Shown: piece after piece, positions 1 through 60,857 of the stretch
Numbering within the stretch: position 1 is the stretch's first letter
Layout of the letters: each line of letters starts with the position of its first letter
Virus record (IMG/VR): IMGVR_UViG_3300031143_000003
Location: 83,287 to 147,286 of that record
Reading direction: 5' to 3' (one strand)
Source: a virus
Taxonomy: Duplodnaviria; Heunggongvirae; Uroviricota; Caudoviricetes
DNA length: 64,000 nucleotides
Program-made: the position numbers and the translations under genes
Notes under the pieces: generated by a model
Databases searched by the model: none
What the model was told of the DNA's origin: nothing
What the model saw: the letters and a program-made list of their open reading frames with translations, nothing else

Positions 1-765
1 AACAGTGTTACCAGATGATATGAAGTCACAATCGCATTCCTGCGCTGCCATTTTCTTACCAAGTAGAGAATCTTGCTTATCTCGCCAATCTTGATGTCGA
101 TCAGGATGTCTAGACCAGTGTAATCTAACTGGAAAGAATTCTCCAACCTGTTGTTCTGCGTCTACCCATGTTTTATGAAATACGTTACCTGTTCCGTTTG
201 GTGTAGATAGCATAATAGCTCTACCACCAGTTGCTAATGTTTGCTGTGCTGATGTCCATATCTCAGGTAGTTTATCAATAAATGCTGCTTCATCGATTAC
301 CAGTAATGATAGCGCTTCAGATCTTGCTGCATCTGGTGCACTCGATACGGCTTTAATATGTGATCCATTCTTGAACCTAAGTGATAGTCTATTGTCTTCG
401 GATGTTCCAACTCTAAGCCAGGTTGGCAACAAATCATGCATTACCCTTACCTTCGTTACTAAATTTTTTGCTGTTTCTTGCTTTATTGCAATAACTAATA
501 CGTTGAAATCCTCTCTAAATACCATTGACCACAATGAATATCCCGCAGTAAGTGTTGATATGCCGAGTTGTCTAGATTTTAGAATTATTGTATAGTTGTT
601 TTCATTGAAACTATCCAGTAAATCCTCTTGGAAGTCGTATAAATTGAATTTTATCTTTCCACGTGTTGGATGCTGGATGAAACAATATTTCTTCATGAAA
701 TATATTGGATCCTTCGAGCAACGTAGATATTCTTCTGCTAATGCCTGTTTTACTGATTTTGCCAT
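1..765 (-). CDS. terL: Terminase large subunit, N-terminal ATPase part; partial, continues past the window start
   Basis: Minus-strand ATG at 765 gives an open frame to position 1 (255 codons). The translation MAKSVKQALAEEYLRCSKDPIYFMKKYCFIQHPTRGKIKFNLYDFQEDLL...KSRQLGISTLTAGYSLW...LLVIDEAAFI carries a Walker A (SRQLG..T) and Walker B (hhhIDEA) in T4 gp17-like context. Absent from the ORF track because it is truncated by the window edge. Confidence 0.85.
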   Translation of the reverse strand, partial: MAKSVKQALAEEYLRCSKDPIYFMKKYCFIQHPTRGKIKFNLYDFQEDLLDSFNENNYTIILKSRQLGISTLTAGYSLWSMVFREDFNVLVIAIKQETAKNLVTKVRVMHDLLPTWLRVGTSEDNRLSLRFKNGSHIKAVSSAPDAARSEALSLLVIDEAAFIDKLPEIWTSAQQTLATGGRAIMLSTPNGTGNVFHKTWVDAEQQVGEFFPVRLHWSRHPDRHQDWRDKQDSLLGKKMAAQECDCDFISSGNTV

Positions 766-1951: not shown

Positions 1952-2527
1952 TTACCCAGTTATATTAGTCAGTTTTAATTTTTCGTTTTCAATGTATACA
2001 TCAAATTCAGCTAGCAATTCGTCGTCGGATTTTCCACCTGACCAATCTTCAATGTCTCCAGCTTCTGATATTTGCGTCTTTGATCCACGTGTTTCTAGCC
2101 AGTCTTTAAATTCTGCCCTAGACTTGTGTAGCCATCCTTCAAAATTTCTATTTATTTGACTGTTTTGCCATGCATCATATGTGCCATTTGATCGCATTTC
2201 CATTTCAGCATCAGTTTGACAGTGCAGACAATGTTTAAATCGCTTATACATGTATTTGTGCTGATCAGCTAGCATTCTACTGTCGCATTTTGGACAATGT
2301 AATGGTATCTTTGCCATTGCTCTAGCCTTATCCAATTTTGTAACGGTCTGTTTTATTCCGTTTTTGATTGTCCAAGTTTTACCATTGTTTTCCCAAACGT
2401 CACCTTCAATGTGTTTAGCCATTGATTCTTTGGTGTAGCCTGATCTAATTTGAGTTTTGTTAGTGTAGTCGCCTGTCACTAAATTTCTCATTCGTTGTAC
2501 TTTGCTTTTTGATATATGCTTCTTCAT
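1952..2527 (-). CDS. Zinc-ribbon protein (CxxC...CxxC), function unknown
   Basis: The track ORF is 1952..2581. Starting at the internal Met (MKKHISKS, position 2527) avoids overlap with the upstream 759-aa gene. Contains CPKCDS...CLHCQ. Confidence 0.5.
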   Translation of the reverse strand: MKKHISKSKVQRMRNLVTGDYTNKTQIRSGYTKESMAKHIEGDVWENNGKTWTIKNGIKQTVTKLDKARAMAKIPLHCPKCDSRMLADQHKYMYKRFKHCLHCQTDAEMEMRSNGTYDAWQNSQINRNFEGWLHKSRAEFKDWLETRGSKTQISEAGDIEDWSGGKSDDELLAEFDVYIENEKLKLTNITG

Positions 2528-2534
2528 TGTAACT

Positions 2535-4814
2535 CTATTTATTATATTTAAACAATCCCAATATTTGATTGATCGGAGCAAATGCGCCTGTTAATTTATA
2601 TGTGTTGTTTTTATATACGAAGACTATTCCTTCGTTTGAAACTATTTTATCCATACCACCAAGTGATTGTAGTCGTTCTAATTCTAATTTTAACTTGGCT
2701 ATTTGTACATCATCGCCTTTTTTCATAATATCAGCTATTGCTGATTTTAATTCCTTTTGCATATCTCTTGCTGCCGAACGAGGATCTACGGCTAATACCG
2801 ATTGCATATTGTATAATACCTCGGCACCCAATCCTAAGAATATCTCTTCGAATTTTCTATTGTTGTTCTTAGCTATTTTTTTATGATCTTTTTTATCAAT
2901 CTGTTTAGCCCAAGCAATTAACTTTTCATCTACCAATGTTTTCTTGTCTAGTCTAAACGATTTTTCACCAAAGGCCCATCGTTTAGTCAATCCCATTAAT
3001 TTGTCTTTGTCAAGTGTTTCGGGTGCATTTTCATTAATAAATTTTGTCCACCAACGCTGATGATATTCTGCTAAACCGTCGCTATCTTTGAGACCAAATT
3101 CTGATTGTAGTTTAGTTATCATGCCATAGTATTTAGATTGCGAAACTTTGAAACTCTTTGATTGAGGTAACACGGTGATAGGTGGTCCCTTTATTGTATA
3201 TTTATCTTGCACATGTCCGTTTATATCTTCTATCATTTTAGCTAGTTTACCAGCAGCAGGTTGATTGCCTGATGTAGGATTACCTGACATGTCATATGTG
3301 GTTGTATTGTGGAATATAAGTAAAGCTTGACCATACGGAATAACATTTGTACTTCCTGGCCATATTACTTCTAGGTTCATGAATGTTTCACCATCAGCAA
3401 AGATTGATATTCTTTGTTTTTTCGATAACTTGCCTAATGCCGTTTCTAGATCCTTCATTGCAAAATTAAAACCATCGGATAATTCTCCTCTACCTGCCAT
3501 CCAAGATTTAACTCCAGATAAATTCATTGCATTTTCACCCTTATCTTTTAAGTGTCCTTTATTTCTAGCTGCAATGAGTCCTCCTTTTTCTTTCCAAGAT
3601 ATAGCTAATGCTTGTCCATCTGTCTTTTCACGTGTTAATTTGAGCTGACCTTTAAGTGCGTCTTTTACAATTTTTTTGAGATCTGAAAATGTTAGATTCA
3701 TCTTTATATCGAATGGATGATTCATATGACCCCAAGCTCCGCCTTCTAATAGTAGCCCTTCGGTTAAAGCTTCTCCTGGTTTCTGCTTCTTCATTGGTTC
3801 TTGCTTGGAAGATGATATAGATGCGTCTGCATCCATAAAGCTTAAGAATTCGTATCCAGCAACGGTCGCTATATGCTTAGACCATTTTGTCCATCTGGTA
3901 TATGCAACTCTTCCTTTTTTATCTTTAAGTAGATTTGTTCCACCATATTCGCCTGGTACACCTATTGGAAAATAAGATACAGCTCCTGTTGGTCCTCCTG
4001 AGAAATCCTTTTTGAATTCTGTATCATGTTGAAAGAATTCGTCTTCTCCACTTATATAATTAAGTACTTCCCAACCTAAATCTCTTGCGGATTTTTTGCC
4101 GAATTTCTTCCAAGATTTCTGATTTCCCCAATATCCCCTAGGTCCATCGTCAACAGAATCTCCCATGTGGGTTGCGTTTTCCTTAAGTAAATCTGGAATG
4201 CTAAAATGGGTGCAGAATCTTTCGACTAAATCCTTTGCGTCGATTAACTTAGATGTTATTAAATCATATGCAGCTTGGTCAAATTTTCCATATATTTTTT
4301 TAAAATTTTTCTTACGTTTAATTGGATCTAGATCTGATAACATGTTTCTAACATCTGTTCCACTTAATGTAGATAATCTAGGTAATCCATAAACATATCC
4401 AGCATCAACATGTCCCTGCGTCATGTCTGCATTGTAGGGTGAGTAATACTTACCACCTAGTCTTCCTGCGTCTTTTTGTCCTACTGCTGTAATGTACCGT
4501 GTATCTTTGTTGAACTTAGATAATATCTCCTTTGGATTGTATGGATTTTTAACTTCTACAATTCTAGTGGAATTTATACCGAACATTTTAGATATTATAC
4601 TTTGCTTTTCTTTAAAGTTCATTGGAGATTTTGGCATTTGAACTTTGTTAGATGTACATATATAAACGTTATTCTTTCCAAATTTGTCTACTAAATGTTT
4701 GTAGTTCTTATAATGCCCAGAATGAAACGGTTGGAATCTGCCTGCATATACTACAACAAGCTCATCTTTACTTTCATTGATAAACGATTCAGCTATCCAA
4801 TTACCTAATTTCAT
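2535..4814 (-). CDS. Multidomain nucleotidyltransferase: N-terminal NMN adenylyltransferase-family domain fused to a large C-terminal region with ligase-like (KxDG / DGE) motifs
   Basis: 759 aa. N-terminus carries VVVYAGRFQPFHSGH (the GRFQPFHxGH motif of archaeal/NadR/NadM-type NMNAT) plus an ISST-like motif LSGTDVR. Further along: REKTDGQALAISW (KxDG-like), FADGETFMNLEV (hhDGEhh-like), NEGIVFVYK...YKLTG. Start overlaps the stop of the upstream kinase gene (ATGA). Confidence 0.55.
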   Translation of the reverse strand: MKLGNWIAESFINESKDELVVVYAGRFQPFHSGHYKNYKHLVDKFGKNNVYICTSNKVQMPKSPMNFKEKQSIISKMFGINSTRIVEVKNPYNPKEILSKFNKDTRYITAVGQKDAGRLGGKYYSPYNADMTQGHVDAGYVYGLPRLSTLSGTDVRNMLSDLDPIKRKKNFKKIYGKFDQAAYDLITSKLIDAKDLVERFCTHFSIPDLLKENATHMGDSVDDGPRGYWGNQKSWKKFGKKSARDLGWEVLNYISGEDEFFQHDTEFKKDFSGGPTGAVSYFPIGVPGEYGGTNLLKDKKGRVAYTRWTKWSKHIATVAGYEFLSFMDADASISSSKQEPMKKQKPGEALTEGLLLEGGAWGHMNHPFDIKMNLTFSDLKKIVKDALKGQLKLTREKTDGQALAISWKEKGGLIAARNKGHLKDKGENAMNLSGVKSWMAGRGELSDGFNFAMKDLETALGKLSKKQRISIFADGETFMNLEVIWPGSTNVIPYGQALLIFHNTTTYDMSGNPTSGNQPAAGKLAKMIEDINGHVQDKYTIKGPPITVLPQSKSFKVSQSKYYGMITKLQSEFGLKDSDGLAEYHQRWWTKFINENAPETLDKDKLMGLTKRWAFGEKSFRLDKKTLVDEKLIAWAKQIDKKDHKKIAKNNNRKFEEIFLGLGAEVLYNMQSVLAVDPRSAARDMQKELKSAIADIMKKGDDVQIAKLKLELERLQSLGGMDKIVSNEGIVFVYKNNTYKLTGAFAPINQILGLFKYNK

Positions 4815-5515
4815 TTTGTGTTCCTTAATTCTAGTTCAGCGTCTATCCAACTCTGTGCTATTTTATTTTGTATTGGGCGACGAACAAATTTAGACGCTGT
4901 TTGCTTGATTGATTTTGAGAAGTCAGCTTTAACTGAATTGTCTATGCTAATGAAGTTTTTGTCACCAAATAATGTTTTATATTTTTTTAGATTTGCTTGG
5001 CATTCTTTCCATGATCTGTTTACCAATTCTACTGGTACCCGTCTTGGTCTAGATTCGTTTCTAGATAATGCAACTTCTAGTGTGGTATTTATGAATGTCA
5101 TATAACAGTCGTAGCCTTGCTTTTTCAACATTTTTACCTGGGCAGCGATCTTATTGTAGTCTTTACCTGTACCGTCTATCAATAAGCCAAGTTTGCCATT
5201 CAAATAATGCTTGAGTCTAGAACTAGTTATTGATTTTGCTGATTTGCGTATTTGTTGGGATTTGGCATATTCTTTAGCACTTAATTTTGTCATATCAAGG
5301 TCAATATTATGTTTTGCCATGATTAGCTCAAATGCTGAGTCTGAATTTACTCCCTTTAGTCCGTCGCTTGATACGGTTGGAGTTGATTCCGGCATACCGA
5401 ATAATGAATTTGCTGCGAAGGATTTGCCTGAGCCTGGACCACCTGACATAAAAACTGCCTTAAATATTCCTGGATCATATGTGCCTTCATTCAATAAATC
5501 TATCATCTTTATCAT
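4811..5515 (-). CDS. P-loop kinase of the polynucleotide kinase (Pnk) family, kinase domain only
   Basis: 234 aa. Walker A GGPGSGKS. The C-terminal block GLLIDGTGKD...ALSRNESRPRRVPVELVNRSWK aligns with T4 Pnk GVIISDTNLN...[23 protein letters not shown]. No phosphatase domain in this ORF. Confidence 0.6.
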   Translation of the reverse strand: MIKMIDLLNEGTYDPGIFKAVFMSGGPGSGKSFAANSLFGMPESTPTVSSDGLKGVNSDSAFELIMAKHNIDLDMTKLSAKEYAKSQQIRKSAKSITSSRLKHYLNGKLGLLIDGTGKDYNKIAAQVKMLKKQGYDCYMTFINTTLEVALSRNESRPRRVPVELVNRSWKECQANLKKYKTLFGDKNFISIDNSVKADFSKSIKQTASKFVRRPIQNKIAQSWIDAELELRNTK

Positions 5516-5767: not shown

Positions 5768-6583
5768 TTAACCTCCAGTAATTGTTATGTTGTCTAGACA
5801 TATATCGCCCTTATATGTTGTTCCAGATTTTGCGAAGAACCATACGTATACGCCAGCTGCATTGCCTGCAATATTGTTCAAGTCAATTTCAGCTTTTCTC
5901 CAATATCCTTGTGTAGATGTACTGGTATGTCCTGAAGTCTGCTGCTGGCCTGTTATCCGATCTGATGTCGTGGTAGCTGTCCCAGTGTTATTTGTCCAAT
6001 GTAATATGTCACATCCGCCACCAGTATCAGAAGTAAATCCAAATCCAGAATAAGATTCTACGGAACTATCTGCGCTGGTTGCACTATCTGTAATTGCTAC
6101 ACCCAATGATCCTATATTCGCACCATACATATGATACCAGAATTCCAACTTTAAGGTGCTATTTGCTGCGGCCGAAGATAGGTCTATCTCAGGAGTTCGC
6201 AATACAAATCGCTTATTATATTGGCCAGATGTTTCAGTATATATATATTTACTGGCAGCAGTTGTTGCTCCAGTTGTTAGTGATTCGTTCATACCGTATT
6301 TAGGCCCAGTATTAGATGACGGAGTTGTTCCACCTTCAATATCCCATTTCCGAGTTGAAGTCGTTGAACCATAGATTGTCGCAGCAATATTATTCAACCA
6401 ACCTGTTGGTGATACTCCATAGCCTTCGGATATGGCATTAAAGTTTTCCGATAGTAACGTTGCGCTTGATGCAGCTGGAATTGCTATTGCCGTCATATAG
6501 TATATGGAAGCTTTTGCTACACCAGATACTTTTGCAATAGTAGATATAGGGACGGCTGATACTTTCGCTATAAACGCTGGCAT
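5768..6583 (-). CDS. Putative virion/fibre-associated structural protein
   Basis: 271 aa, Ser/Thr/Gly-rich. Start overlaps the upstream fibre gene stop. Lies inside the fibre gene block. Confidence 0.5.
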   Translation of the reverse strand: MPAFIAKVSAVPISTIAKVSGVAKASIYYMTAIAIPAASSATLLSENFNAISEGYGVSPTGWLNNIAATIYGSTTSTRKWDIEGGTTPSSNTGPKYGMNESLTTGATTAASKYIYTETSGQYNKRFVLRTPEIDLSSAAANSTLKLEFWYHMYGANIGSLGVAITDSATSADSSVESYSGFGFTSDTGGGCDILHWTNNTGTATTTSDRITGQQQTSGHTSTSTQGYWRKAEIDLNNIAGNAAGVYVWFFAKSGTTYKGDICLDNITITGG

Positions 6584-8364
6584 TATGCTATCTCAATCCA
6601 AGTGTTATCAGGGCTAAAATATATTGGTGCAGTTGTACCTGTGCTATAACCAATTATTCTAACGACATCCCCGGTTGCAGTTGGTTTAGTTTTTGATAGT
6701 CCACCGGCTGTTGTGCTTAAGTATATAGGGACTCCGGGTTCGCCAGCTGGATTTGACGTTGGATGGATGAGACCGCTAACCAGCATACCATCAGCTAATG
6801 CACTTGTTCCTACGGCCATTCCTAACATTGTTGTTCCATAGTTGACTGTTGCTGATGCAGCATGCCATGTGCCAGAACCCTTTAGATAGTATATTCCGCC
6901 AGCTACTGTTGAACCAGTTGCGGTGTATATCACATTTCCTTGTGCGGGTCGATATGTTGCGTGCAGTGAAGTTGGAAGTAACACAGTTTGATCAACATCT
7001 AGGTTATTACCAATAATTGTGTCAGTGAATACTGCAAGGTCATTAAACGTTGCACGACCATTGAAAGTTGACCTCCCTTCAGTAGTAACATCACCATTAT
7101 TATTTATCGTCATTCGGACTGTATTATCTGTGCCAAACTGAATATCATTTGTTGTACTACCACTAATACCTATCAATAATGCGTTGGCAGTTGTACCAGA
7201 ATATGGTAAATCATTTGGAGCATCACCAGCGTCACCAACATGGCCAATATAACTACCAATTCCACCACCATCTTGACTAAGTTTTATATATGAATTCTTG
7301 GATTCATCATCATTATTTGGATCAGCTGCTATTGTTAATGATGCATTGCCGGTTGTTGTTGATACCACCAAGTTACCAGCTATTGTTTGATTTCCACTAG
7401 CTAATGCTGTTGCAGTTCCAGCGTTACCAGTAATCGACGTTTGATCGCCTGTATTTGTTCCACTTAAATTTGAACCAGCTAATGTACCACTTGCACTTAC
7501 GTGGCCAGAAGCTGTTACGTCACCATTCATAGTTATCGGATTTGCAGATTTACCTATCCGTATTGGCGTATTATTTTCATAACCTAAAGTCATAGCGGCA
7601 GCAGTATACATCCCAACTGGATGACCCTCAGAATAAAATCTGTCGGCAGATATATCGCCACTTGCACTTACATGACCAGAAGCTGTTATATCGCTTAACG
7701 AATTTATGCCGCCATACACTTTTAAACCTAGTCCTGCACTACTAGATATTATAGTTTCATTATCAGGTATCAGTGATAGGTCTTGATTTGCATATATTTC
7801 TAAGTCATCTGGCGTATCCGAATTAACCCCTATGTATGAGTTGGATGATCCTTCATGAAAAAGGACTCTATTGCTATTCATATTGAAATTGGACAATACA
7901 TCTATTGTTGCTACTGGCGAATATATCTTTGGATTAGTAGAAGTCCATGTACTACCACCCCTAAGTTCTATTCCCCTAGCTGATGGTCCTACGAATAACG
8001 AACCTGTGTTGAGACTGTCTCCAATAGATAATCCCTTAAGGACTATTGAATCTAAAGAATGCACAACGCCACTCGCGCTTATATTGCCAGAGGCTGTTAT
8101 ATTTCCAGTAAACGTATGCTCGTCTGATACTGAATCTCCGAATGCTGTAGATCCTGAGCTAAATGAAGTTGTCATGTGTGTTACTGATGATGATATAATA
8201 TAGTTTTCTGCTGTCAATGTTTCGACTGCAAAATTACTAGATACGCTCGAACCAGAACCATAGTATAACTTACCAGAATCTAAGTTTATTGCTAACTCGC
8301 CTTCTTCTAAGCTTGATGGAACGGAATTACCAGTTCCCCTTTTTATTCGTATTGTCTGTGACAT
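6583..8364 (-). CDS. Tail fibre-like protein (593 aa)
   Basis: Repeated ITASGN(V/I)SASG motifs shared with the 1261-aa and 390-aa proteins. N-terminal GSTAFGDSVSDEHTFTG module shared with the 390-aa protein. SD-like AAGGAAA lies 9 nt upstream. Confidence 0.65.
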   Translation of the reverse strand: MSQTIRIKRGTGNSVPSSLEEGELAINLDSGKLYYGSGSSVSSNFAVETLTAENYIISSSVTHMTTSFSSGSTAFGDSVSDEHTFTGNITASGNISASGVVHSLDSIVLKGLSIGDSLNTGSLFVGPSARGIELRGGSTWTSTNPKIYSPVATIDVLSNFNMNSNRVLFHEGSSNSYIGVNSDTPDDLEIYANQDLSLIPDNETIISSSAGLGLKVYGGINSLSDITASGHVSASGDISADRFYSEGHPVGMYTAAAMTLGYENNTPIRIGKSANPITMNGDVTASGHVSASGTLAGSNLSGTNTGDQTSITGNAGTATALASGNQTIAGNLVVSTTTGNASLTIAADPNNDDESKNSYIKLSQDGGGIGSYIGHVGDAGDAPNDLPYSGTTANALLIGISGSTTNDIQFGTDNTVRMTINNNGDVTTEGRSTFNGRATFNDLAVFTDTIIGNNLDVDQTVLLPTSLHATYRPAQGNVIYTATGSTVAGGIYYLKGSGTWHAASATVNYGTTMLGMAVGTSALADGMLVSGLIHPTSNPAGEPGVPIYLSTTAGGLSKTKPTATGDVVRIIGYSTGTTAPIYFSPDNTWIEIA

Positions 8365-8397
8365 ATTGTGTTTCCTTATGTATAAATATCAACGTTA

Positions 8398-11300
8398 TTA
8401 GAATGTTCCACCATCTATTGTGCCATCCATGTCAGTCAAGCTACCAATGTAACTAGTTGCCGTTATTGTTCCACTTGCGCTTACGTTACCAGACGCTGTT
8501 ATATGTGTATCTACCTTTAAATTGCCGTATACTCTAGTCTCCATACTTTCACTGACGGAGAATAGTCGATTACCGTAACCAACTGCGCCACTATTACTTT
8601 CAATCACAAACTTAGCTGCGGGCTTTTGATCATCTGCATCCAATAATATTGCGAAACTTCCAGACCCCTTCTGCGTTATTGACCCCATTACTTCGTCTGG
8701 ATCAGATAGTACTGCTGATTCTGCCCTAAGTATAGTTGATCTACTACCAGCTGTAGCATTAACAGCTACGAATCCCTGAGTCTGAGTTCCTATTTGTACA
8801 GATGAGGCTGCGCCAAATGCACCCATGTTGACTTCTTTTACTCTAATTTTTTTGTAATCACTACCTGATATAAATTGTACGTCGCCACTTGTATTATCAA
8901 TACCCATTCTAGCATGCTCTACTGCATCGGATCCTGAATCATCGGCTGATGCACTATAGAATATAATTGAACCAGTTGAAACGTGAATGTGTCTAAATGG
9001 GAATCGCTTGCTACCCAATGAATGGTATTCTGGTCTATCCGGAATCACATCTCCACCAACTATTGTTGCTCCATTCCTAACGTATAATGAATAATGAGCT
9101 TCACCGGGTCCCTTGAAGAACGTCTCAAGCTTACCATCATTATACGTTTGCTTTTCAGATCCAGATATACCAATTATTGCAGGTCCAGACTTCAAATTAC
9201 CCTCTATTGCATGGTTATCAGTTGTTGCATTTCCGAACGAAGTGTTACCAGTTGATGTTATGGTTGCAAAAGTTGCATTTGTGTTGGTTGTTGCCTTTGT
9301 ATTGATATTTGTTTGCAATATTGAGCTAGATGCATTTAATTGTGCGTTAGTGGAATAGGCTGTTAAGTCTTGATCTCCACTATTATGCCCTATTATATTG
9401 GATGCGCTGATATGTCCGCTTGCACTAACCGTTGTTACATTTGTTATTGCATTACTTGCCATATCTAAAGTCTGCGTTGCAGTATGGTCGCCTAGATCAT
9501 CTGCTCCAGCGATAGCCGTTGAAAGAGAAGCCGAAACATCAGCAAATCCACCTAAAGAGAATGTGCTAGTTACTTCTAAGCTACCAGTTATAACTGCATC
9601 TCCAGTATATGGAAAACCTGCGCCTGATCCTCCAGTGATTCCCTGATATGCAGATGCGCTTAGTGTACCTGCTATTTCGAAGTCGCCTATCAATTTTAGT
9701 GGTGATGTTATTGTTTGTATTGCACCAGCAGAACTCAAAGAGAATTTATCCGGATCTATATAATTGTACGTTAGAGGGTAGTATGTTACCAATCCCCTAG
9801 AGGCGTTACGATCTTCCTTCACATATGTACCAGCGAACTGTTTTTTCGGATAATAGACATCGTAAGTAGCATTATTTGATTGTGAAGGGTAGTTTTGGAA
9901 CCAGACAGTATCTCCTGATGATGATACTACATATTTTACGCCATATACACTGTGTGATGCATAAGTTGTATTTATATGGCTGCCGGACGGCTCACGATTA
10001 TCCAAGTCAAGATAGCCAGCTAAATTGATAAAGCCCGATGATGATGGGGACGTTATGGAACCGGATATTAGACTTACTGTGCCAGAATTTGTATGTACAG
10101 GATCGTCATAATAGTCCTTCAGATATGTTGGTGTCATTAAATCATACATATCTAACATAGGCCAATTATGAGCCTGTTTCTGTGATGCGACAGAATCTGC
10201 ATATTGTATAAATGGGATATCAGAGGAATAGACAAAATCTGTAAATCCACTATTATCATGCATCATAGCTTTTAGTGTTTCAATAGTAGTGGTATGGTTA
10301 GGATCATTGGCAAACTTACCTTGATGGTGACTCCCAGCTTGCCATAGATCATTCTGTATGACCATTTCTCCAAACTTCAAGATTGATCGGTTCGTTGGAT
10401 TCAGTTGACCTAATTCGCCATTTACCAACACAGTATCTTTACCATATGGCAGTCCACTAGCTGTAACATCGTTTAAACAGATAGATGCCTTGGAGTTCAT
10501 ACTTTTATCATATACGAAGAATGGGATATCTCCAAAACCAGGGGACTGTGTGTTATCAAATCCGACGTCTACCGTTGTACCGAATCCCAGTGCTCCCATG
10601 TATGACGATTTCATACCAAATATACTCCAAGAATTGAGGAAGAGGACGCCATCCGAATTATGGCAATTTTCCGGATAGTATAGGTTTTGTGTTTGAGTTG
10701 AGCCTCCGGTAAAATGGTCACTGACGAATGTATGTGCGGGAATTTCCTGTAGATTTGATCCAGTGGAAGATCCGTAATACTTTATGGAATGATCTGCGTA
10801 TGGATAACCTGCATATACCTGTTCTACTTGCAATCTATAATCTGAATCTATAGGGTATACTGATGCAGATACGTGTTGATAGCATTTGCTCGTATTTATT
10901 AATTGTCGTAAACCATCTGCTATTTCAAACTTGGTTTTATTAGTTATATCAAACTCTATACGGGAATTTGTGTCTCCAGCATACCACGCTCGTTGGACTT
11001 TTGTATTTTGTTGATCAGGCAGAATTTGATTTACAGCACGAACGTTGAACGGGATATTACCATTGGCTCCATCAGTATATTGTAGATTTAGATAATTGGA
11101 AGATGTTTCAGTTGCATGGTAATCCCATTTATCGGCTATGGAATGTTCGAAATAGTGATGTCCAGTCAGATCAGATGATTCAAAATTTGATGATGTAAAG
11201 CCAATACTAAATCCAAAACCCAGTGGCATATGGATAACGGGTATTAATAGTTGGTTGTCGGCGCCATCTGTATATGGTGCACCATTTGCGTCTGAGTCAT

Positions 11301-12183
11301 TGTTTATTAATATGGATGATGAATTTCTGAAGTCGTGTCTTGCAAAATCATGATTATAATATGCTCTTTTGTATGGGGATAAACTACCGACGCCAATTGC
11401 AGCTGTTTGGGCCCCAATAGTAATTACACTAGAATCTGCGTCGAATGATAGATTTGTTTCGGTAGTCGAATCAATAGCAGTAATTCCTCCGCCACCTGAT
11501 GAAGCTGCGCCAGTTGCTCCTATATATCTATATCCAACTATCCACAGCGGCTTGGCATAGCCACTCATATCTGGTCCATCTCCATTACTCTGGTCGCCAC
11601 AATACATTATTCCCTGATAGTAATCGAACGCTGCTCCTCCGAAATTCTTACCAGTCTGCGTTCTACCACCGTATGGTATAGCATTCGAACTAGGTCCATT
11701 TGTCGATGTATCGTTTTCATATACAACCGCAGCATATCCTGGTCCAAACTTAGTTGGATTTAACCAATTCTTGAACCGGCTATCGGAATATTCAGCAACT
11801 TCGCCGGCTTGAACATCACCAGTATTAGCCTGGCTAGCTGATATGAATGCAACATATGTTTGGCCATTGCCGTCCATATCAGTTAGTGGCATAGTTATTT
11901 TTTCAAAATTTGGATCAGTACCTATACCAGTTGCCGATACAAATGCACCATCGTCCCATATTTCAGCAGTTGTTGCAAATGTTCCATCCCAAGTGCGACT
12001 TGTTGCAAATTCTGGCGCTACTGATGCATATTCAATGTCGCCAACGTCAGATAATAGTTCAGCTGAGTATATCTGGTGACTAGCTTCTAAGTCTTCACCT
12101 GATATTGGTCCTGGTCCAGTGTGTAGCTTTCCAAAAGCATGTTTAAATGACGCTTTACGTTGGTCGGTTGTATTGAATGCCAT
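8398..12183 (-). CDS. Giant tail fibre/structural protein (1261 aa)
   Basis: Long single ORF with an SD (GGAG) upstream. C-terminal ...ITASGNVSASGTITATSYIGSLTDMDGTIDGGTF resembles the repeats of the 593-aa protein and the C-terminus of the 206-aa protein. Confidence 0.65.
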   Translation of the reverse strand: MAFNTTDQRKASFKHAFGKLHTGPGPISGEDLEASHQIYSAELLSDVGDIEYASVAPEFATSRTWDGTFATTAEIWDDGAFVSATGIGTDPNFEKITMPLTDMDGNGQTYVAFISASQANTGDVQAGEVAEYSDSRFKNWLNPTKFGPGYAAVVYENDTSTNGPSSNAIPYGGRTQTGKNFGGAAFDYYQGIMYCGDQSNGDGPDMSGYAKPLWIVGYRYIGATGAASSGGGGITAIDSTTETNLSFDADSSVITIGAQTAAIGVGSLSPYKRAYYNHDFARHDFRNSSSILINNDSDANGAPYTDGADNQLLIPVIHMPLGFGFSIGFTSSNFESSDLTGHHYFEHSIADKWDYHATETSSNYLNLQYTDGANGNIPFNVRAVNQILPDQQNTKVQRAWYAGDTNSRIEFDITNKTKFEIADGLRQLINTSKCYQHVSASVYPIDSDYRLQVEQVYAGYPYADHSIKYYGSSTGSNLQEIPAHTFVSDHFTGGSTQTQNLYYPENCHNSDGVLFLNSWSIFGMKSSYMGALGFGTTVDVGFDNTQSPGFGDIPFFVYDKSMNSKASICLNDVTASGLPYGKDTVLVNGELGQLNPTNRSILKFGEMVIQNDLWQAGSHHQGKFANDPNHTTTIETLKAMMHDNSGFTDFVYSSDIPFIQYADSVASQKQAHNWPMLDMYDLMTPTYLKDYYDDPVHTNSGTVSLISGSITSPSSSGFINLAGYLDLDNREPSGSHINTTYASHSVYGVKYVVSSSGDTVWFQNYPSQSNNATYDVYYPKKQFAGTYVKEDRNASRGLVTYYPLTYNYIDPDKFSLSSAGAIQTITSPLKLIGDFEIAGTLSASAYQGITGGSGAGFPYTGDAVITGSLEVTSTFSLGGFADVSASLSTAIAGADDLGDHTATQTLDMASNAITNVTTVSASGHISASNIIGHNSGDQDLTAYSTNAQLNASSSILQTNINTKATTNTNATFATITSTGNTSFGNATTDNHAIEGNLKSGPAIIGISGSEKQTYNDGKLETFFKGPGEAHYSLYVRNGATIVGGDVIPDRPEYHSLGSKRFPFRHIHVSTGSIIFYSASADDSGSDAVEHARMGIDNTSGDVQFISGSDYKKIRVKEVNMGAFGAASSVQIGTQTQGFVAVNATAGSRSTILRAESAVLSDPDEVMGSITQKGSGSFAILLDADDQKPAAKFVIESNSGAVGYGNRLFSVSESMETRVYGNLKVDTHITASGNVSASGTITATSYIGSLTDMDGTIDGGTF

Positions 12184-12185
12184 AA

Positions 12186-12377
12186 CTAGTCTCCGCTATT
12201 GTATTTTGATGATATTTCAGTTAATCTTCGCATAAAATTAGATGTTTCTGATACACTCAAATTGCGTTCAAGAAAAACTGATTCAGATGGGAGTTCACCA
12301 GCTGAAAGCTTATATTTTAGGGTACATGATTTGTCAGCATGTACAACGACATTAAATAGTTCATATGTGTCTATCAT
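12186..12377 (-). CDS. Small hypothetical protein between giant fibre genes
   Basis: 63-aa ORF that exactly fills the gap between the 2011-aa and 1261-aa genes. Confidence 0.4.
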   Translation of the reverse strand: MIDTYELFNVVVHADKSCTLKYKLSAGELPSESVFLERNLSVSETSNFMRRLTEISSKYNSGD

Positions 12378-12379
12378 AA

Positions 12380-15300
12380 CTACTCCTTTTCCATTGTTAT
12401 ATATGTTATGTTATGGTTTGATTCGGTTGCGTCAGCAGCTAATCGTATTTCAAGCAATACAATTGAGTCGGTATAATATACTGCGTAGTTTTTTGTGCTC
12501 CACAGTATAGCTACGGACGTTGATGTTGCCTGTGCGTGGCCAACAGGATAGAATGCTGCTGTCGATAAGTCTACCCAATTTTCAACAGATGGGGCAGTAG
12601 ATAGACCGGTACCAGCTGTCACAACAGACCAGTTTGTTCCAGATTTAGTTGGTAACTGACTATTAGTTGAATTGATTGCGCCTGGCAGTCTTGCTCTAAT
12701 TCGAATTTTTCGCGAATTGAAGTGTACGCTATCGCCATCGGCTATTGGCTGATCAGCCCATATATCCTCAGACGTTATGGGATCATTTGGATCACATCCA
12801 ATATGTAGTTTAATAACCTTGTGTTGGGTGGAAGATATATTTTGGACATTGATTGCTCTATAATAGAATCTGTCGCCAACTGAATTTGTATAGTCCGGAG
12901 CATTTGGATTAATTCCAGACGAATAGTCCTGTGTTGGGTATGTTAGCTGTCCAGATGTATTCTGCTGTAGGTCATCTGTTGTTGATATATCGACAGTTGA
13001 ATCGTATGCACAATTGGCAGCTGTTGTCCAATATGCATAATTTCCGGCACCAAGGTGATCACTAAATGACGATGTCTGGGATTTAGCGAGTCTGAATTCT
13101 TCGCTGTAGAAGTTTTCAGTTGTGGTTGATGAGGGCGAATGTGATCCGTTATCTACATATCTACCAATGATTGGTGTAATTGTTTCCGAACCACCTCCAT
13201 CATTGAATACAACTGTTGCAGATCTATTTGTGCCGGTTGTATTTGTTCCAGTAAATTGCGCTAGATATGATAGGTTTGCTGTATCTGAAACAGTCGGTAT
13301 ATCATTTGTGCTATTTGACCATGTTAATCCGTCATTGTGCGTTAGGTATCTACTGTAATCAGTATATGACCCATTTACATATATCTTGAGTCCAGTTTCT
13401 GTGTCAATTGTTCCAAATCTGCCAGATGTTACATTATATGTTTCGTTAGCTACACCAGTAATATATCCCGAATATGATATTTCGAATGGTACATCTGGTA
13501 TAAAGTAGTCTACGCCGGATAGCGACATGGTTGGAGAAGTGCTATTATATTCATTCCATGTGAACGCATTTGTTGCTGGCTGATTTATTGTAACAGTATG
13601 ATCGCCATCATCGTAATACCATCCATATACTGCAGATGTCTGCGTTACTCCTCCAATAGTTCGCTCTAGATACAGCTCATTGTATCCGGGGACATATTTT
13701 GATGTTATAGCTATTGTTGGTGAATAATGCTGGTAACCGACTGGATATAATTCAGTTCCATCATATACTGGTTGACTTATATTATTATGTACGCCACGTG
13801 TAATGGACAATACTCCACTTGTTTGAACCGCTTGAGTTGTTGCCTTAAGCGAATCATTGAATGTCGCATTTAGATCAATTGATGATACTTCAGCTGAGTT
13901 GATGTATAGTTTAATTGATCCAGACTCAGCATAATCATATAATTTACCAGGCATTGTCAACGTTATGCCATAATTTGTGCCAGCTGTCTTCAATATATTT
14001 GATACACTATCACCAGGTAAATCGCCAGATTTATATGTCCAAGTTGATTCGGACGGTAGTTGCGCTGTTTGTAATGATATGTTGTCAGTAAACGATTCAC
14101 CATGTATTGATGTTGGTTTGTTTGGTAATATATTAATAACCTGTGTTACAACTTCTTGTTCACTATCATTTACAATATTTGAATCAATCGTTGCAGTTAT
14201 ATTATATGAAGCAATGTTGTTGTTATTGGATATATCTGATATATCTATATACGCTATTGTCTTGCCTGATCCTAGCGTTACGATGTCAGATCCACCATTG
14301 TGTGTCCATACTACGTCATAGTTTGAAGCATTCATAGTATCGTATGACGAGGTAGTCATTGGGTCAGCAACAATTGTAGTATGTAGTTCGACATTGGTTA
14401 TTACATCAGAATGCCCAGACGAAATATAGTCATCTAACATGACAATTCCTGCACTAGCTGAATAGTGTGCAATATTTGGCGTAAGTGATGCATCTATTTC
14501 AGAATTGTCTGCAGCTTGAACTGTTACTGTCGCAGACGATATTGTTTCTGATATGTTAGTCCCATTTGTAATTGAATCATGTGAGGTAAACACTGGAACG
14601 AATGTGTTTCCAGATAAAACAAATTCAAACGGGATCCAGCTTGATGTAAATGTGGTATTCCATCTACCTGCATCCATTGATTCTGTTTGCACTGTTGATC
14701 TATTGATAGTATACGTTGTGCCATCGTAGGAGTAAACTGTTGACTCGGTATGTGGGCCGAACGGCTCTATTCGATTGACCATAAATTGAGTTCGAACCAA
14801 TTGGTCTTGTGCAATCTGAGTTGTTCCTGTAATTGCAACAAGTTGAGTTGTTGTTAATCCATGTAATAATTTTGATGTTCTAGTTGTTGTTGCTATATTT
14901 GAACCAGACGTATTCTGTTCAACCATCGATTGTGCAGTTATAATTGTATCAGCTATTGGTGCCATGATTAACTCAGCAGTTGTTGCAGAGAAATTATTAG
15001 TTATATTTGTGCCGTATAGTATTGTTGATATTGTATGTGTTCCAGCAACAAAGGTTGACTCTTGCCAGCTTGATGTGTATGATGTAACCAAGCTTATGTT
15101 TGCGTCATATGCCGATACTGGAGTTGGGTTAGATGAATTGGACAGAGAGATTGTTGTCAAATTTGTATTGCCATTTCTAAACAATGATGACATTGCATTA
15201 TGCGTTGGACCAAACGGCTCAGTCACAGTTGCAGTCAATCGATATCTAATTACTGACTCGTCCAAGTGTGCTTGCACATAGTTGGTCAACCCTTGTAATG

Positions 15301-53303: not shown

Positions 53304-53765
53304 TTAAAATGAACCAGGAGCGACTTGCATAACCGTTAATCCTCTATCTCTCCACATTTTCACGACCTTATCGCGATCATCGAATATACATAGTACATCA
53401 GATTGATTTGGAAATTTAGCGTCGAACCAATCTGATTTGAGCTTATCGTCGGGTGTGAATGAATTTAGTGGTCTCATTGTGATACTGTCAAATGGTACAT
53501 TGAATTTATCAAGCCATTTTGTTGTAGTGTCCTTTGTTCCAGTACATCGACCAGAAAATATCGCAATATTGAAACCTTGTGATTTGAGTGTTTGTGCCAT
53601 GATTATGACTGGATTATTGGGCTTATCCATTTGGATATTATTTGGATCAAAAAACTTAGTCCAATTAATCTTCCCATTGTCCTTTGTGCTAAAGGATCGT
53701 CGATCATCAATAAGTGCTAGGGTGCCATCTAGATCGAAAATTACCCATTTGTTTGAATTGCTCAT
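53304..53765 (-). CDS. Polynucleotide 3'-phosphatase, homologue of the T4 Pnk C-terminal HAD phosphatase domain (stand-alone)
   Basis: 153 aa. VIFDLDGTLA (DxDGT). IAIFSGRCTGTKDTTTKWL versus T4 VVVSGRESGTKEDPTKYY. C-terminus IFDDRDKVVKMWRDRGLTVMQVAPGSF versus T4 [27 protein letters not shown]. Confidence 0.85.
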   Translation of the reverse strand: MSNSNKWVIFDLDGTLALIDDRRSFSTKDNGKINWTKFFDPNNIQMDKPNNPVIIMAQTLKSQGFNIAIFSGRCTGTKDTTTKWLDKFNVPFDSITMRPLNSFTPDDKLKSDWFDAKFPNQSDVLCIFDDRDKVVKMWRDRGLTVMQVAPGSF

Positions 53766-54281: not shown

Positions 54282-54355
54282 GTGGACCCTACTGGACTCG
54301 AACCAGTGACCTTAACATTATGAGTGTTCTGCTCTAACCAACTGAGCTAAGGGTC
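54282..54355 (-). tRNA. tRNA with CAU anticodon (Met or Ile2/lysidine type)
   Basis: Minus strand GGACCCTTAGCTCAGTTGGTTAGAGCAGAACACTCATAATGTTAAGGTCACTGGTTCGAGTCCAGTAGGGTCCA. 7-bp acceptor, D-arm GCTC/GAGC with GG, anticodon loop CTCATAA, T-arm ACTGG-TTCGAGT-CCAGT. 74 nt, no encoded CCA. Confidence 0.8.
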
Positions 54356-54439
54356 CGGGTGATGGTTGTCTAACTTTAATTATGGGTGGAAAACCCAACT
54401 AAAGACCTTAGTTTGCTGGTACCATCAACAGCTATACTG

Positions 54440-55297
54440 TTATTTGCCGGTTACGGACTTAAATAACTGTGGTACTACGCCGTATGTTGGCAATTTACCA
54501 TCCCATTTCTCGATCATCTGTTGTTGAACCAATAGATCGGTCAATGCTGTGTTTTTCTGCTGGAAAGCATAACGTTCGGCCTCTGCATTAATTCGCATAG
54601 CTTTCGCATCTCCCTCTGCTTCTGCAACAATTTTCTCTGCATCTGCTGTAGTTTGAGCCAATTCCTCTTGCTTACGTAATGCCATTTGAGTAGCATTAAC
54701 CTTCGCTTCGATGTTCGACACAACCGATTTTGGAAGTCTCAACTCATTTAATAATACAACTTGTTCGATGACAAATCCTTCTGGCTCGAGAATCGTTCTA
54801 ATCGCATTTTCTGACTCAGTTTGGAAGTCATTACGACGCTCATATAATTCCGAAGCTGAATAGTTTGCAGCTGTTGAGTTAAACGCATCACGCATATAGT
54901 TCTTGACGATCGTTTTTTCTAACTCTCCAATTGGTCGACGATATTTCTTAAATATACTTACAACATTTTCAGCTGGAGTATAATAGTTTATAGATACATC
55001 GAATGCAACAACTAGTCCATTACTCGTCGTTATTCTAAATTCCTCATTTTCATCGGAATGACGAGTGTCTTGCTTAGTGTAAACTGCGTTTTGAACATAC
55101 GTTGGTACTTCATATACCTCTGTCGTGAATGGATTGTACCAAACTGCTCCAGTAACTGCTGTTACGTTTTGCACTCCCTTTTCATTTCCATATAGATTAA
55201 CTCTAATTCCTTCGTGTCCTGCGTCAATACGCTCATATCCACATGAAGATAACAATAACGTTGCTACCCCTAATACTAATAAAATTTGCTTTTTCAT
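54440..55297 (-). CDS. SPFH/band-7 (stomatin/prohibitin/HflK-like) domain lipoprotein
   Basis: 285 aa. Lipoprotein signal MKKQILLVLGVATLLLSSC. C-terminal ...NATQMALRKQEELAQTTADAEKIVAEAEGDAKAMRINAEAERYAFQQ is typical of SPFH family coiled-coil/A-E-rich tails. Confidence 0.55.
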   Translation of the reverse strand: MKKQILLVLGVATLLLSSCGYERIDAGHEGIRVNLYGNEKGVQNVTAVTGAVWYNPFTTEVYEVPTYVQNAVYTKQDTRHSDENEEFRITTSNGLVVAFDVSINYYTPAENVVSIFKKYRRPIGELEKTIVKNYMRDAFNSTAANYSASELYERRNDFQTESENAIRTILEPEGFVIEQVVLLNELRLPKSVVSNIEAKVNATQMALRKQEELAQTTADAEKIVAEAEGDAKAMRINAEAERYAFQQKNTALTDLLVQQQMIEKWDGKLPTYGVVPQLFKSVTGK

Positions 55298-55301
55298 ATA
55301 A

Positions 55302-55466
55302 CTACCTGTTGATTAATTTAATACCGGAATAAATTGTTAAAAGTACGACTAAGAATCCGGCGATATTCTTAGTTGTATTCGGTTCACTAATTAGGTCGAG
55401 CCCAATTGTTATCATAAATATTGCTACAAACAATGTTATGATTATTCCCATTATTTTTTCGATCAT
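55302..55466 (-). CDS. Small two-TM membrane peptide (54 aa), possible NfeD-like partner of the SPFH protein
   Basis: MIEKIMGIIITLFVAIFMITIGLDLISEPNTTKNIAGFLVVLLTIYSGIKLINR. Start overlaps the upstream gene's stop (ATGA) and it ends 5 nt before the SPFH start. Not in the ORF track (under 60 aa). Confidence 0.35.
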   Translation of the reverse strand: MIEKIMGIIITLFVAIFMITIGLDLISEPNTTKNIAGFLVVLLTIYSGIKLINR

Positions 55467-56143
55467 TTTGCGTATGTTAAAATGTTACCTTGGCCAGTAT
55501 TCTTGCCAAATCTTCCGTCTTTTACGCATGAACCGTTACTATAAAGTGTGTCGATTCCTGCAATCGTTTTTGTTCCAGCATTGATTATGCCTTCGCAATT
55601 GTGAATGTGTCCAAATAATACTAGTTTTGGACGAACAGTCAATAATCGTTTTGCTAAAGCCGAACATCCACAGTATTCTAATGCTCCGAATCTATCAGTT
55701 GATAGGTCCAATATGCCCTTAGGTGGTCCGTGCACAATAACAATGTTCGTGTTATCTGGAATTTCAGCCCAAAGTCGACTTAATTTTGATCGATTTTTCA
55801 TGAACGACCAGTCTCCGAATGTTGGAGAGAACGGTGATCCCCATATGTTAATACCATCGATCGTTACTGATTCATTTTCCAAATAGACGATACCATTTGC
55901 CTTGAATAGGTCCCTATCGACAAGTCCATATTCGATACTTGAGTCGTGATTTCCAGCAACGAATATCTTGTGCTTGATTTGTAGACTACTAAACCATGTT
56001 ATAAACGAACGAACCTCAGGCTCATTTGCATATTGATTTCTAGGGTTCGAACAGTCTCCTGAAAAGATCACCATGTCAATATCTGATGGTATATTCAAGT
56101 GACCATGATACGTGTGAGTATCGCTTATGTGCCAAATTCTCAT
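55463..56143 (-). CDS. Calcineurin-like metallophosphoesterase
   Basis: 226 aa. HISDTH, GD, GNHD, VHGPP, GHIH motifs. Confidence 0.7.
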   Translation of the reverse strand: MRIWHISDTHTYHGHLNIPSDIDMVIFSGDCSNPRNQYANEPEVRSFITWFSSLQIKHKIFVAGNHDSSIEYGLVDRDLFKANGIVYLENESVTIDGINIWGSPFSPTFGDWSFMKNRSKLSRLWAEIPDNTNIVIVHGPPKGILDLSTDRFGALEYCGCSALAKRLLTVRPKLVLFGHIHNCEGIINAGTKTIAGIDTLYSNGSCVKDGRFGKNTGQGNILTYAK

Positions 56144-60760: not shown

Positions 60761-60764
60761 GTTG

Positions 60765-60857
60765 TAAGGGAGGCAGGACTCGAACCTGCGCGATAAGGAT
60801 TTGTTAGCCTTATCTCTCTTATTTGCGTATAGCGTTTCCCAGTTTCGCCACTCCCTT
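60765..60857 (-). tRNA. tRNA-like element (93 nt) with canonical acceptor stem and T-arm but atypical internal arms; possible class-II tRNA or tRNA-like RNA
   Basis: Minus strand AAGGGAG...GCAGG-TTCGAGT-CCTGC-CTCCCTT-A. Perfect 7-bp acceptor and 5-bp T-stem with TTCGAGT loop. A 3-bp D-stem (GCG/CGC) with GG-containing loop, and a 7-bp hairpin GATAAGG-CTAACAAAT-CCTTATC. No standard 5-bp/7-nt anticodon arm could be placed. Confidence 0.4.

Follow-up and report, generated by a model that had tools for sequence, protein, structure and literature searches.

Bacteriophage T4 counters the PrrC anticodon nuclease with two enzymes, the polynucleotide kinase-phosphatase Pnkp (PseT) and RNA ligase 1. 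We analyzed a 64,000-nucleotide stretch of marine phage DNA (positions 83,287 to 147,286 of IMG/VR record IMGVR_UViG_3300031143_000003, Caudoviricetes; hereafter the window) in which relatives of these components are arranged differently. In the window, a kinase gene overlaps a gene whose 759-residue product joins a nucleotidyltransferase of the HIGH superfamily, a middle domain and an RNA-ligase-like domain. Some 48 kb lie between the kinase gene and that of a phosphatase, whereas those of the T4 tRNA repair pathway form one polypeptide. On balance, we favor the reading that the coupled genes form a kit for healing and sealing nucleic-acid ends, most probably those of broken tRNA or other RNA; we infer both the activities and the substrate. 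The genes at the center of this analysis are as follows.

4811..5515, minus strand: kinase gene, open reading frame (ORF) of 234 residues
2535..4814, minus strand: multidomain gene (HIGH nucleotidyltransferase, middle domain, RNA-ligase-like domain), ORF of 759 residues
4811..4814, minus strand: ATGA stop/start overlap of the kinase gene and the 759-residue gene, from direct sequence reading
1952..2527, minus strand: zinc-ribbon protein gene, about 191 residues, a conserved partner (sequence; homologues in related loci)

The two ORFs and the ATGA joining them had been described in an original prediction made from the letters of the window, and direct reading of the sequence finds them at those coordinates. 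The overlap is predicted to couple translation of the 759-residue protein to that of the kinase, and an AGGA lies 8-11 nucleotides upstream of the ATG of the larger gene (context AAAATGAAA). The P-loop, HxGH, SGTxxR, KTDG and EGIVF…K motifs quoted in that prediction all fall at the expected residues. They exceed chance: PF01467 scores above its gathering cut-off, the kinase matches Zeta_toxin and AAA_33, and the ligase motifs are near-invariant in 35 homologues.

The RNA-ligase-like domain

The C-terminal domain, on which our reading chiefly turns, has the following features.

2538..3761, minus strand: RNA-ligase-like covalent nucleotidyltransferase domain, residues 352-759 (fold and motifs)
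3708..3746, minus strand: family signature EGGAWGHMNHPFD, residues 357-369, N-terminal to motif I
3609..3629, minus strand: motif I EKTDGQA, whose K397 is the candidate AMP acceptor; KTDG is residues 397-400 (conservation)
3363..3383, minus strand: motif III FMNLEVI, E482 (conservation; beta-strand in the model)
3306..3326, minus strand: motif IIIa ALLIFHN, F501/H502 (conservation; model beta-strand 150-159)
2646..3260, minus strand: all-helical insertion of about 200 residues between motifs IIIa and IV (model helices 207-375, domain numbering)
2586..2636, minus strand: motif IV NEGIVF (E728, G729) and motif V KNNTYKLTG (K735, K740) (conservation; terminal beta-hairpin in the model)

Residues 200-759 were not recognized by any sequence library that we searched. 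Searching the PDB with the 759-residue protein and with a 35-sequence profile of the C-terminal domain yielded no ligase, only spurious matches to eS6; sequence alone therefore cannot place the domain. The profile comes from an alignment of 35 diverse homologues with identity down to 23%, gathered with a standalone 421-residue jumbo-phage version of the domain as query. In these homologues D399-G400 of motif I is invariant and K397 is present in 34 of 35, and H502 of motif IIIa is invariant, as are E728, F732, K740, T742 and G743 (EGIVF is residues 728-732 and YKLTG residues 739-743). The proposals that KTDGQA is motif I-like and EGIVF…K motif IV/V-like thus held. Motif III had been misplaced: E476 of FADGETF is not conserved, and the invariant glutamate of both alignments examined (A1 and A2) is E482 in FMNLEVI, six residues away. 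Motifs I, III, IIIa, IV and V follow one another in the canonical ligase order, with an unusually long spacing of 226 residues between IIIa and IV. Sub-threshold matches to the Pfam family RNA_ligase (PF09414) occur in 11 of the 35 homologues, at no more than 17.1 bits against a cut-off of 27 and over profile positions 2-33, the motif I region; the window protein itself does not match PF09414.

An AlphaFold2 model of the domain, built from the 35-sequence alignment (predicted local distance difference test (pLDDT) 91, predicted template modeling score (pTM) 0.87), has the nucleotidyltransferase fold of ligase adenylylation domains. When this model was compared with the PDB using Foldseek, the top matches were RNA ligases only (Trl1, with E 2e-3 and probability 0.98, and T4 Rnl1), and RNA ligases ranked above DNA ligases in both fold searches. 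The known RNA ligases that matched align to the domain across only about 165-185 residues. Because of the conserved motifs, the model, the Foldseek matches and the sub-threshold RNA_ligase matches, we assign the domain as a predicted covalent nucleotidyltransferase of the ligase type, most similar to RNA ligases, with an activity suggested by fold and motifs. In other words, the C-terminal region has a ligase-related fold and a conserved KTDG lysine, in agreement with the original prediction.

The layout of the domain is unlike that of any described ligase family in its helical insert between motifs IIIa and IV, its end just past motif V and its signature motif. Specifically, the chain ends 19 residues past motif V with no C-terminal or OB domain; the all-helical domain that follows motif V in Rnl1-type enzymes is absent, and the helical module sits between IIIa and IV. 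The signature G-H-M-x-H-P-F-D (residues 362-369; 3708-3731, minus strand) is invariant in alignment A1 and near-invariant in A2, and lies in a region of low model confidence. To our knowledge, it is not among the known ligase motifs. It might bind a metal or a phosphate.

The domain is probably homologous to DUF6267 (PF19782), a relationship that we do not regard as established. PF19782 had no match to the window protein at E<=1, and the homology was missed by BLASTP, by hhalign with shallow profiles and by hmmsearch. Once the DUF6267 profile had gained members from cyanophages and XaC1, hhalign gave a weak match (E 0.002) in which all motifs were collinear. By eye, DUF6267 carries the series HLEHxED, KWDG, FHT and EGYV…K in the order of the C-terminal domain, with GHMxHPFD aligned to H-L-E-H-x-E-D. 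A Foldseek search of viral models returned uncharacterized phage proteins of about 390-450 residues and cytidyltransferase-like proteins of about 900-970 residues, at E 1e-9 to 2e-4; these outrank the annotated viral RNA ligases. The probable DUF6267 proteins among them score E 1e-9 to 1e-5, and their membership is only presumed. We hold the homology to be probable only, because it became weakly visible only after the profile was diversified. DUF6267 is found in 471 phage records, mostly of cyanomyoviruses, together with a CTP_transf-like partner encoded by an adjacent or overlapping gene or in the same chain (examples are P-HM1, syn9 and HTVC008M, and phrog_455, a DUF6267-CTP_transf fusion). 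We found no published characterization of DUF6267, DUF5824, the 'cytitidyltransferase' or the combination of a HIGH nucleotidyltransferase with an RNA ligase; the RNA-repair survey of Burroughs & Aravind (2016) could mention the family.

Partners of the ligase-like domain

The remaining domains of the 759-residue protein and the motifs of the kinase are as follows.

4230..4763, minus strand: HIGH-superfamily (cytidylyltransferase-like) nucleotidyltransferase domain, residues ~18-195 (PF01467 and PDB profile)
4713-4742, minus strand: HxGH motif in GRFQPFHSGH, residues 25-34 (invariant residues)
4347-4367, minus strand: SGTxxR motif in LSGTDVR, residues 150-156 (invariant residues)
3825..4172, minus strand: middle domain, residues ~215-330, VDDGP … VSYFPxG (conserved blocks in alignment A1)
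5420-5443, minus strand: Walker A motif (P-loop) GGPGSGKS, kinase residues 25-32
5330-5350, minus strand: VNSDSAF with the candidate catalytic Asp59, opposite D35 of T4 Pnk
5033-5062, minus strand: lid RNESRPRR with conserved arginines (RNESRPRRVP is residues 152-161)

HxGH and SxTxxR motifs are common to the whole HIGH superfamily. The N-terminal domain matches PF01467 at 23.3 bits (cut-off 21), and G25, R26, P29, H34, S151 and R156 are invariant among its homologues. The best matches of its profile in the PDB are archaeal/NadM NMNATs (1f9a, 1.4e-8), over the first ~55 residues only (profile positions 20-72); PPAT matches across the whole domain (1e-5, positions 12-187), and there are further matches to NadR chains and, weakly, to the UPF0348 protein MJ0951 (0.005). 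HIGH domains of relatives give weak matches to Citrate_ly_lig (4.4e-5). The best NCBIfam match is again NMNAT, at 22.9 bits (its cut-off is 127, and the curated cut-offs range over 127-449) and confined to residues ~20-77. We therefore retain the HIGH motifs and drop the NMNAT identity from the earlier description of an NMNAT-type N-terminus, since the score falls far short and the substrate-binding half is unmatched. The domain is a predicted HIGH-superfamily nucleotidyltransferase with intact ATP-binding motifs, to which we assign no second substrate. The middle domain has no family match in Pfam or PHROG-type searches and has low pLDDT in a full-length model of the 759-residue protein, which was built from a shallow 25-sequence alignment (pLDDT 63) and excluded from the fold search. 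It is absent from Mel-JY01 and is fused straight to kinase domains in four proteins (P0337, P0428, P0305 and P0384).

The kinase matches the Pfam families Zeta_toxin (2.6e-10) and AAA_33 (3.6e-10) and the 'polynucleotide kinase' family phrog_505 (1.8e-7), and its NCBIfam and PDB matches include L-seryl-tRNA(Sec) kinase. When a 28-sequence profile of the kinase was searched against the PDB, PSTK (1.8e-7) and zeta toxin (1.5e-5) ranked first, followed by the 171-residue chains 4mde/4gp6/4jst (6e-5 to 1e-4), which we take to be the kinase domain of Clostridium thermocellum Pnkp, and by T4 PNK (0.023, across the full domain) and Pnkp1 (0.03). Deoxyguanosine kinase and adenylate kinases ranked weaker, and the profile did not match a NadR-type ribosylnicotinamide kinase in this search. 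A pairwise alignment with T4 Pnk covers the whole kinase domain (E 6e-4, 21% identity), where the original prediction had aligned the C-terminal block, and sets K31/S32, D59, R152 and R156 opposite K15/S16, D35, R122 and R126 of T4 Pnk. Neither these residues nor R158 vary across 28 homologues; the position of T4 Pnk R38 is a Phe in the window kinase. The same K/S, Asp and Arg catalytic set also occurs in the related PSTK and zeta kinases. Because of the profile ranking and the invariant residues of the T4 Pnk alignment, the kinase is placed in the clade of PNK, PSTK and zeta toxin, as had been proposed, and not among NMN or nucleoside kinases; its substrate is not readable from sequence. Two homologues occur in other settings. 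In Methylophilales phage Melnitz (L010, 4983-6282) the gene after a kinase of 42% identity encodes an NT5C-like HAD phosphatase (PF06941, 1.2e-5), a pairing that differs from that of the window. In Agrobacterium phage Atu_ph07 (L092, 2758-6590) the kinase domain is residues 250-456 of a 778-residue protein, phrog_12810, whose N-terminal region is duplicated in the preceding 490-residue protein; neither of these regions has a family assignment.

Homologues of the 759-residue protein are abundant, with more than 3,500 significant matches among those listed, mostly from marine metagenomes. In cellular genomes we found 11 matches across 185,579 species, all on short contigs of metagenome-assembled genomes that are probably binned phage DNA; the family is almost virus-only. 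The original prediction had not recognized the architecture as a described one. Its layout is indeed new, and it is not rare, family members being already labeled 'cytidyltransferase-like'.

We surveyed the 80 closest IMG/VR loci of the 759-residue protein. Across the family, the ligase-like and HIGH domains occur together, either fused, in either domain order, or split, with the ligase-like domain in a gene of its own and the HIGH domain encoded by the next gene, which overlaps or adjoins it (L003, L007, L103 and L110), and fusions with extra domains give ORFs of 760-1846 residues. The HIGH domain is a near-obligate partner of the ligase-like domain. Insertions concentrate in the linker just upstream of EGGAYGHMxHPFD (the window equivalent is ~3750-3830), and ORF lengths run from 391 to 1846 residues. 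In one relative (L051, 3002-8209) the same ORF holds, in frame, an HD phosphohydrolase domain together with a PolyA_pol head (PF01743, E 4.6e-27) and the RNA-binding region that belongs to it, which is the architecture of bacterial CCA-adding enzymes. Homologous inserts are present in 9 of the 80 loci (L051, L069, L068, L066, L070, L025, L015, L067 and L058), and these modules point to tRNA. Other inserts at the same site are GNAT (L024), DUF5661 (L071, L045 and L022) and an HNH/ROS-MucR-like module (P0017). In LR756508, an uncultured 484-kb jumbo phage (L004, 4599-7346), the homologue is a 915-residue protein with a ParB/sulfiredoxin-like 'DGHHRW' domain N-terminal to the HIGH nucleotidyltransferase, followed by the zinc-ribbon gene.

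The kinase joins these domains in single chains as well. Among the top 150 kinase-family representatives, five proteins (P0340, P0398, P0402, P0361 and P0419) carry kinase, HIGH nucleotidyltransferase and ligase-like domain in the same order as the window genes, and five more fuse kinase and HIGH nucleotidyltransferase, which bears out the proposed link of the three domains. CTP_transf is the commonest identifiable fusion partner of the kinase (6/43; NUDIX, 2/43), and P0366 fuses a Pol-beta nucleotidyltransferase with kinase and HIGH nucleotidyltransferase. A single-sequence kinase scan of viral contigs found one locus only. In Pelagibacter phage HTVC008M a kinase with 45% identity overlaps the start of a CTP_transf/DUF5824 gene by 4 nucleotides, and the pair sits two genes after the DUF6267 gene.

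The zinc-ribbon ORF (CxxC…CxxC) has its ATG at 2527, 7 nucleotides past the stop of the 759-residue gene. It has no match in Pfam or PHROG-type family searches. A homologue lies directly downstream in ~55/80 of the related loci, likewise in LR756508 and Mel-JY01, and one with 51% identity directly follows the kinase in L091; the protein probably serves the system as a subunit or as a specificity factor. Terminator scans of the minus strand found no terminator-like site between the kinase, 759-residue and zinc-ribbon genes; scans for promoters and terminators stayed at chance level and do not otherwise bear on the transcription unit.

In the window as a whole, all likely real genes among the ORFs of at least 100 residues lie on the minus strand, and the plus-strand ORFs overlap them. 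The window begins within a large-terminase gene (1-765, minus strand) with 30% identity to HTVC008M TerL. Close kinship of the two phages is rejected, with just six weak protein matches including TerL. The kinase operon adjoins very large repeat-rich genes (271, 593, 1261 and 2011 residues; 5768-18415, minus strand), probably tail-fibre or structural genes.

Proposed function and alternatives

In the reading that we favor, the 234-residue kinase would phosphorylate 5'-OH ends. The C-terminal domain, of the ATP-dependent RNA-ligase type, would form lysyl-(K397)-AMP, pass the AMP to the 5'-phosphate and seal that end to a 3'-OH, as its fold and motifs suggest. Any 3'-phosphate or 2',3'-cyclic phosphate might, more speculatively, be cleared in trans by a HAD phosphatase or a metallophosphoesterase encoded elsewhere in the window. 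These steps give no part to three obligate or frequent companions of the ligase-like domain, namely the HIGH domain, the middle domain and the zinc-ribbon protein. The candidates for 3'-end healing and their neighbors are as follows.

53304..53765, minus strand: standalone PNKP-type HAD 3'-phosphatase, 153 residues (PF25109, E 1e-31)
54282..54356, minus strand: tRNA-Met (CAT), flanked by the phosphatase and Band_7 genes (ARAGORN)
54440-55297, minus strand: Band_7/SPFH protein, clustered with the phosphatase, tRNA-Met and metallophosphoesterase
55463..56143, minus strand: calcineurin-like metallophosphoesterase near the HAD phosphatase (PF00149, E 9.8e-14)
60764-60857, minus strand: tRNA-Leu (CAA) (ARAGORN)

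The HAD phosphatase, which has a DLDGT motif of the DxDxT type at residues 11-15, is a candidate 3'-end healing enzyme. It aligns with residues 160-301 of T4 Pnk at 32% identity (E 2e-18) and is genuinely of the PNKP type; the near-identity to T4 Pnk originally reported for its C-terminus is confined to the last ~17 residues, which are strikingly alike. The metallophosphoesterase is a possible alternative for healing 2',3'-cyclic phosphate or 3'-phosphate ends. In tRNA repair, template-independent nucleotidyltransferases and phosphoesterases are known to accompany phage RNA ligases (PMC7824862, section 3.4.9). The domain associations, together with tRNA-Met, tRNA-Leu, the phosphatase and the phosphoesterase at 53.3-60.9 kb, favor RNA, particularly tRNA, as the substrate. 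The RNA-repair module of the original prediction is in part upheld, by the clade of the kinase, by the domain fusions and by the CCA-type inserts; the general adjacency of the kinase, the link to the phosphatase, the placing of motif III, the NMNAT identity and the rarity of the layout are unsupported or overstated.

Several observations weigh against a healing-and-sealing role. We know of no healing or sealing system that uses a HIGH nucleotidyltransferase, and half of the conserved core is therefore unexplained. No kinase or any other Walker-A ORF was found within 7 kb in any of the 80 closest homologue loci, so the kinase is not an obligate neighbor; conserved adjacency is rejected, and the kinase is a facultative partner of the family. 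The phosphatase has no homologue in HTVC008M, which has the kinase module, and is never fused to the kinase relatives examined; its membership in a conserved module is unsupported, as is the part assigned to it by the original prediction from 48 kb away. The GNAT, DUF5661, HNH and ParB-like inserts are not specific to RNA repair. Finally, the probably related DUF6267-cytidyltransferase pair of cyanophages and HTVC008M lies in the DNA replication block after gp41, a position that fits a role on DNA equally well.

A doubtful extension, and the boldest, would have the HIGH domain act directly on nucleic acid, adenylylating either the 5'-phosphate that the kinase would add or a 3'-phosphate, or forming an acyl-adenylate that modifies tRNA. 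Kinase, HIGH nucleotidyltransferase and ligase-like domain would then carry out a repair or modification chemistry in three steps for which no precedent is described.

The role on DNA would be that of a nick-sealing or repair ligase for phages without a T4 gp30-type ligase, with the kinase acting on 5'-OH ends of DNA and the nucleotidyltransferase supplying or regenerating a cofactor. We consider it unlikely. In its favor, HTVC008M (L002/L096, 103.7-109.0 kb) carries its DUF6267-kinase-CTP_transf cluster directly after gp41, and its annotation includes a complete T4-like replisome with no DNA or RNA ligase listed. The order gp41-mazG-…-DUF6267-'cytitidyltransferase' recurs in the Kyanoviridae P-HM1 (L009), S-CRM01 (L097) and syn9 (L098), and standalone homologues lie beside gp32/UvsW/DNA polymerase B/RNR (L007) and DNA pol III alpha (L006). 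However, the fold searches placed RNA ligases above DNA ligases, the chain ends soon after motif V with no OB or DNA-binding domain, and the in-frame CCA-adding/HD modules point to tRNA. The window genes sit among tail-fibre-like structural genes, not replication genes, and the homology to DUF6267 is itself weakly supported at an hhalign E of 0.002.

Less likely still is a polyvalent counter-defense or RNA-modification protein that ligates no polynucleotide, with AMPylation of a protein or small molecule, or the acyl-adenylate modification of tRNA performed by HIGH enzymes of the citrate-lyase-ligase/TmcAL type, as its possible chemistry. The extreme modularity of the family would suit such a protein (inserts include GNAT, HNH, ParB-like and DUF5661 domains and, in one BFVD match, a SET domain), as would the weak Citrate_ly_lig and UPF0348 matches of the HIGH domains and an invariant GHMxHPFD that is not a known ligase motif. 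Yet all five ligase motifs, including both lysines of motif V, show the conservation seen in true polynucleotide ligases, RNA ligases come nearest in fold, and a PNK-like kinase partner suits end healing.

The weakest alternative is NadR/NadM-like cofactor salvage, in which the kinase makes a mononucleotide (for example, nicotinamide riboside to nicotinamide mononucleotide), the HIGH domain adenylylates it and the ligase-like domain uses the product, in the manner of an NAD-dependent ligase, or does unrelated chemistry. Phage NAD salvage with fusions of a HIGH nucleotidyltransferase to a kinase or a Nudix domain is documented (PMC7824862, section 3.4.8), which counts for this alternative, as do the archaeal/NadM NMNAT signatures GRFQPFHxGH and SGTxxR, the NMNATs as best PDB and NCBIfam matches, kinase-HIGH fusions in 10 of the top 150 kinase relatives (paralleling NadR), the NUDIX partner in 2/43 (paralleling NadM) and the NadE encoded by HTVC008M. 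We think it improbable, because the NMNAT matches span only the ATP-binding part of a domain that PPAT matches about equally well over its whole length, PSTK, zeta toxin and PNK, rather than the NadR RNK family, are the company of the kinase (AAA_28 is marginal, 4.5e-4, in one relative), and the near-obligate ligase-like partner and the CCA-adding/HD inserts are left unaccounted for.

We conclude that the system is best described as of the healing-and-sealing type, built on a new RNA-ligase-like structural family and an unprecedented HIGH nucleotidyltransferase partner. If this is correct, the window holds a new structural family of RNA-ligase-type enzymes, with a helical insert in the adenylylation domain, no accessory N- or C-terminal domain and an HxxHPFD signature, and this family would be almost confined to viruses and extremely common in the ocean. 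Pelagiphage and jumbo-phage proteins labeled 'cytidyltransferase-like' would gain a function, which by extension might also be assigned to the DUF6267/cytidyltransferase pair in hundreds of T4-like cyanophage genomes. Such a system would suggest conflicts of tRNA or RNA breakage and repair in SAR11-type and cyanobacterial hosts. The near-obligate HIGH partner is a testable lead to new end-processing chemistry, possibly to molecular-biology reagents; if the HIGH domain acts on nucleic acid, that chemistry would be unprecedented and would reside in one of the most abundant marine myovirus gene families, including the DUF6267/'cytitidyltransferase' pair.

Comparison with known systems

Beyond the separation of kinase and phosphatase, the window system differs from the T4 pathway in its kinase and its ligase-like domain. 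The kinase is 21% identical to T4 Pnk and lacks an equivalent of R38. The ligase-like domain has no counterpart of the C-terminal domain of T4 RNA ligase 1 and contains helices inserted between motifs IIIa and IV. T4 lacks the HIGH nucleotidyltransferase and the middle domain that share its chain in the window protein. Fungal and plant Trl1 and bacterial Pnkp carry as their third module a 2H cyclic phosphodiesterase or a metallophosphoesterase/HAD phosphatase, whereas that of the window system is the HIGH nucleotidyltransferase. The domain order also differs from Trl1 and the bacterial Pnkp systems (Pnkp/Hen1 and Pnkp1-Rnl-Hen1), and no Hen1 methyltransferase was found with the window system.

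Among the ligase families themselves, the window domain is only 11-14% identical to Rnl5 of Naegleria and Deinococcus (NgrRnl and DraRnl) and to Rnl2/REL1. It lacks the N-terminal OB-like domain of Rnl5 and the C-terminal domain of Rnl2, whose family PF09414 stays below its cut-off (at most 17 bits against 27), and the ~200-residue helical insertion and GHMxHPFD set it apart from all of these. There is also a likeness to DUF6267 (PF19782) with its 'cytitidyltransferase': the CTP_transf-like partner is shared, the motifs HxEHxxD, KWDG, FHT and EGYV…K are collinear, and the DUF6267 system of HTVC008M shares the kinase as well, at 45% identity. The domain order is reversed relative to phrog_455/DUF6267, the nucleotidyltransferase coming first in the window protein. 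With NadR and NadM the system has in common a HIGH nucleotidyltransferase with GRFQPFHxGH and SGTxxR, a P-loop kinase partner and, in some relatives, Nudix; this likeness is confined to the ATP-binding motifs, the window kinase is not of the RNK type, and the main partner of the nucleotidyltransferase is an RNA-ligase-like domain.

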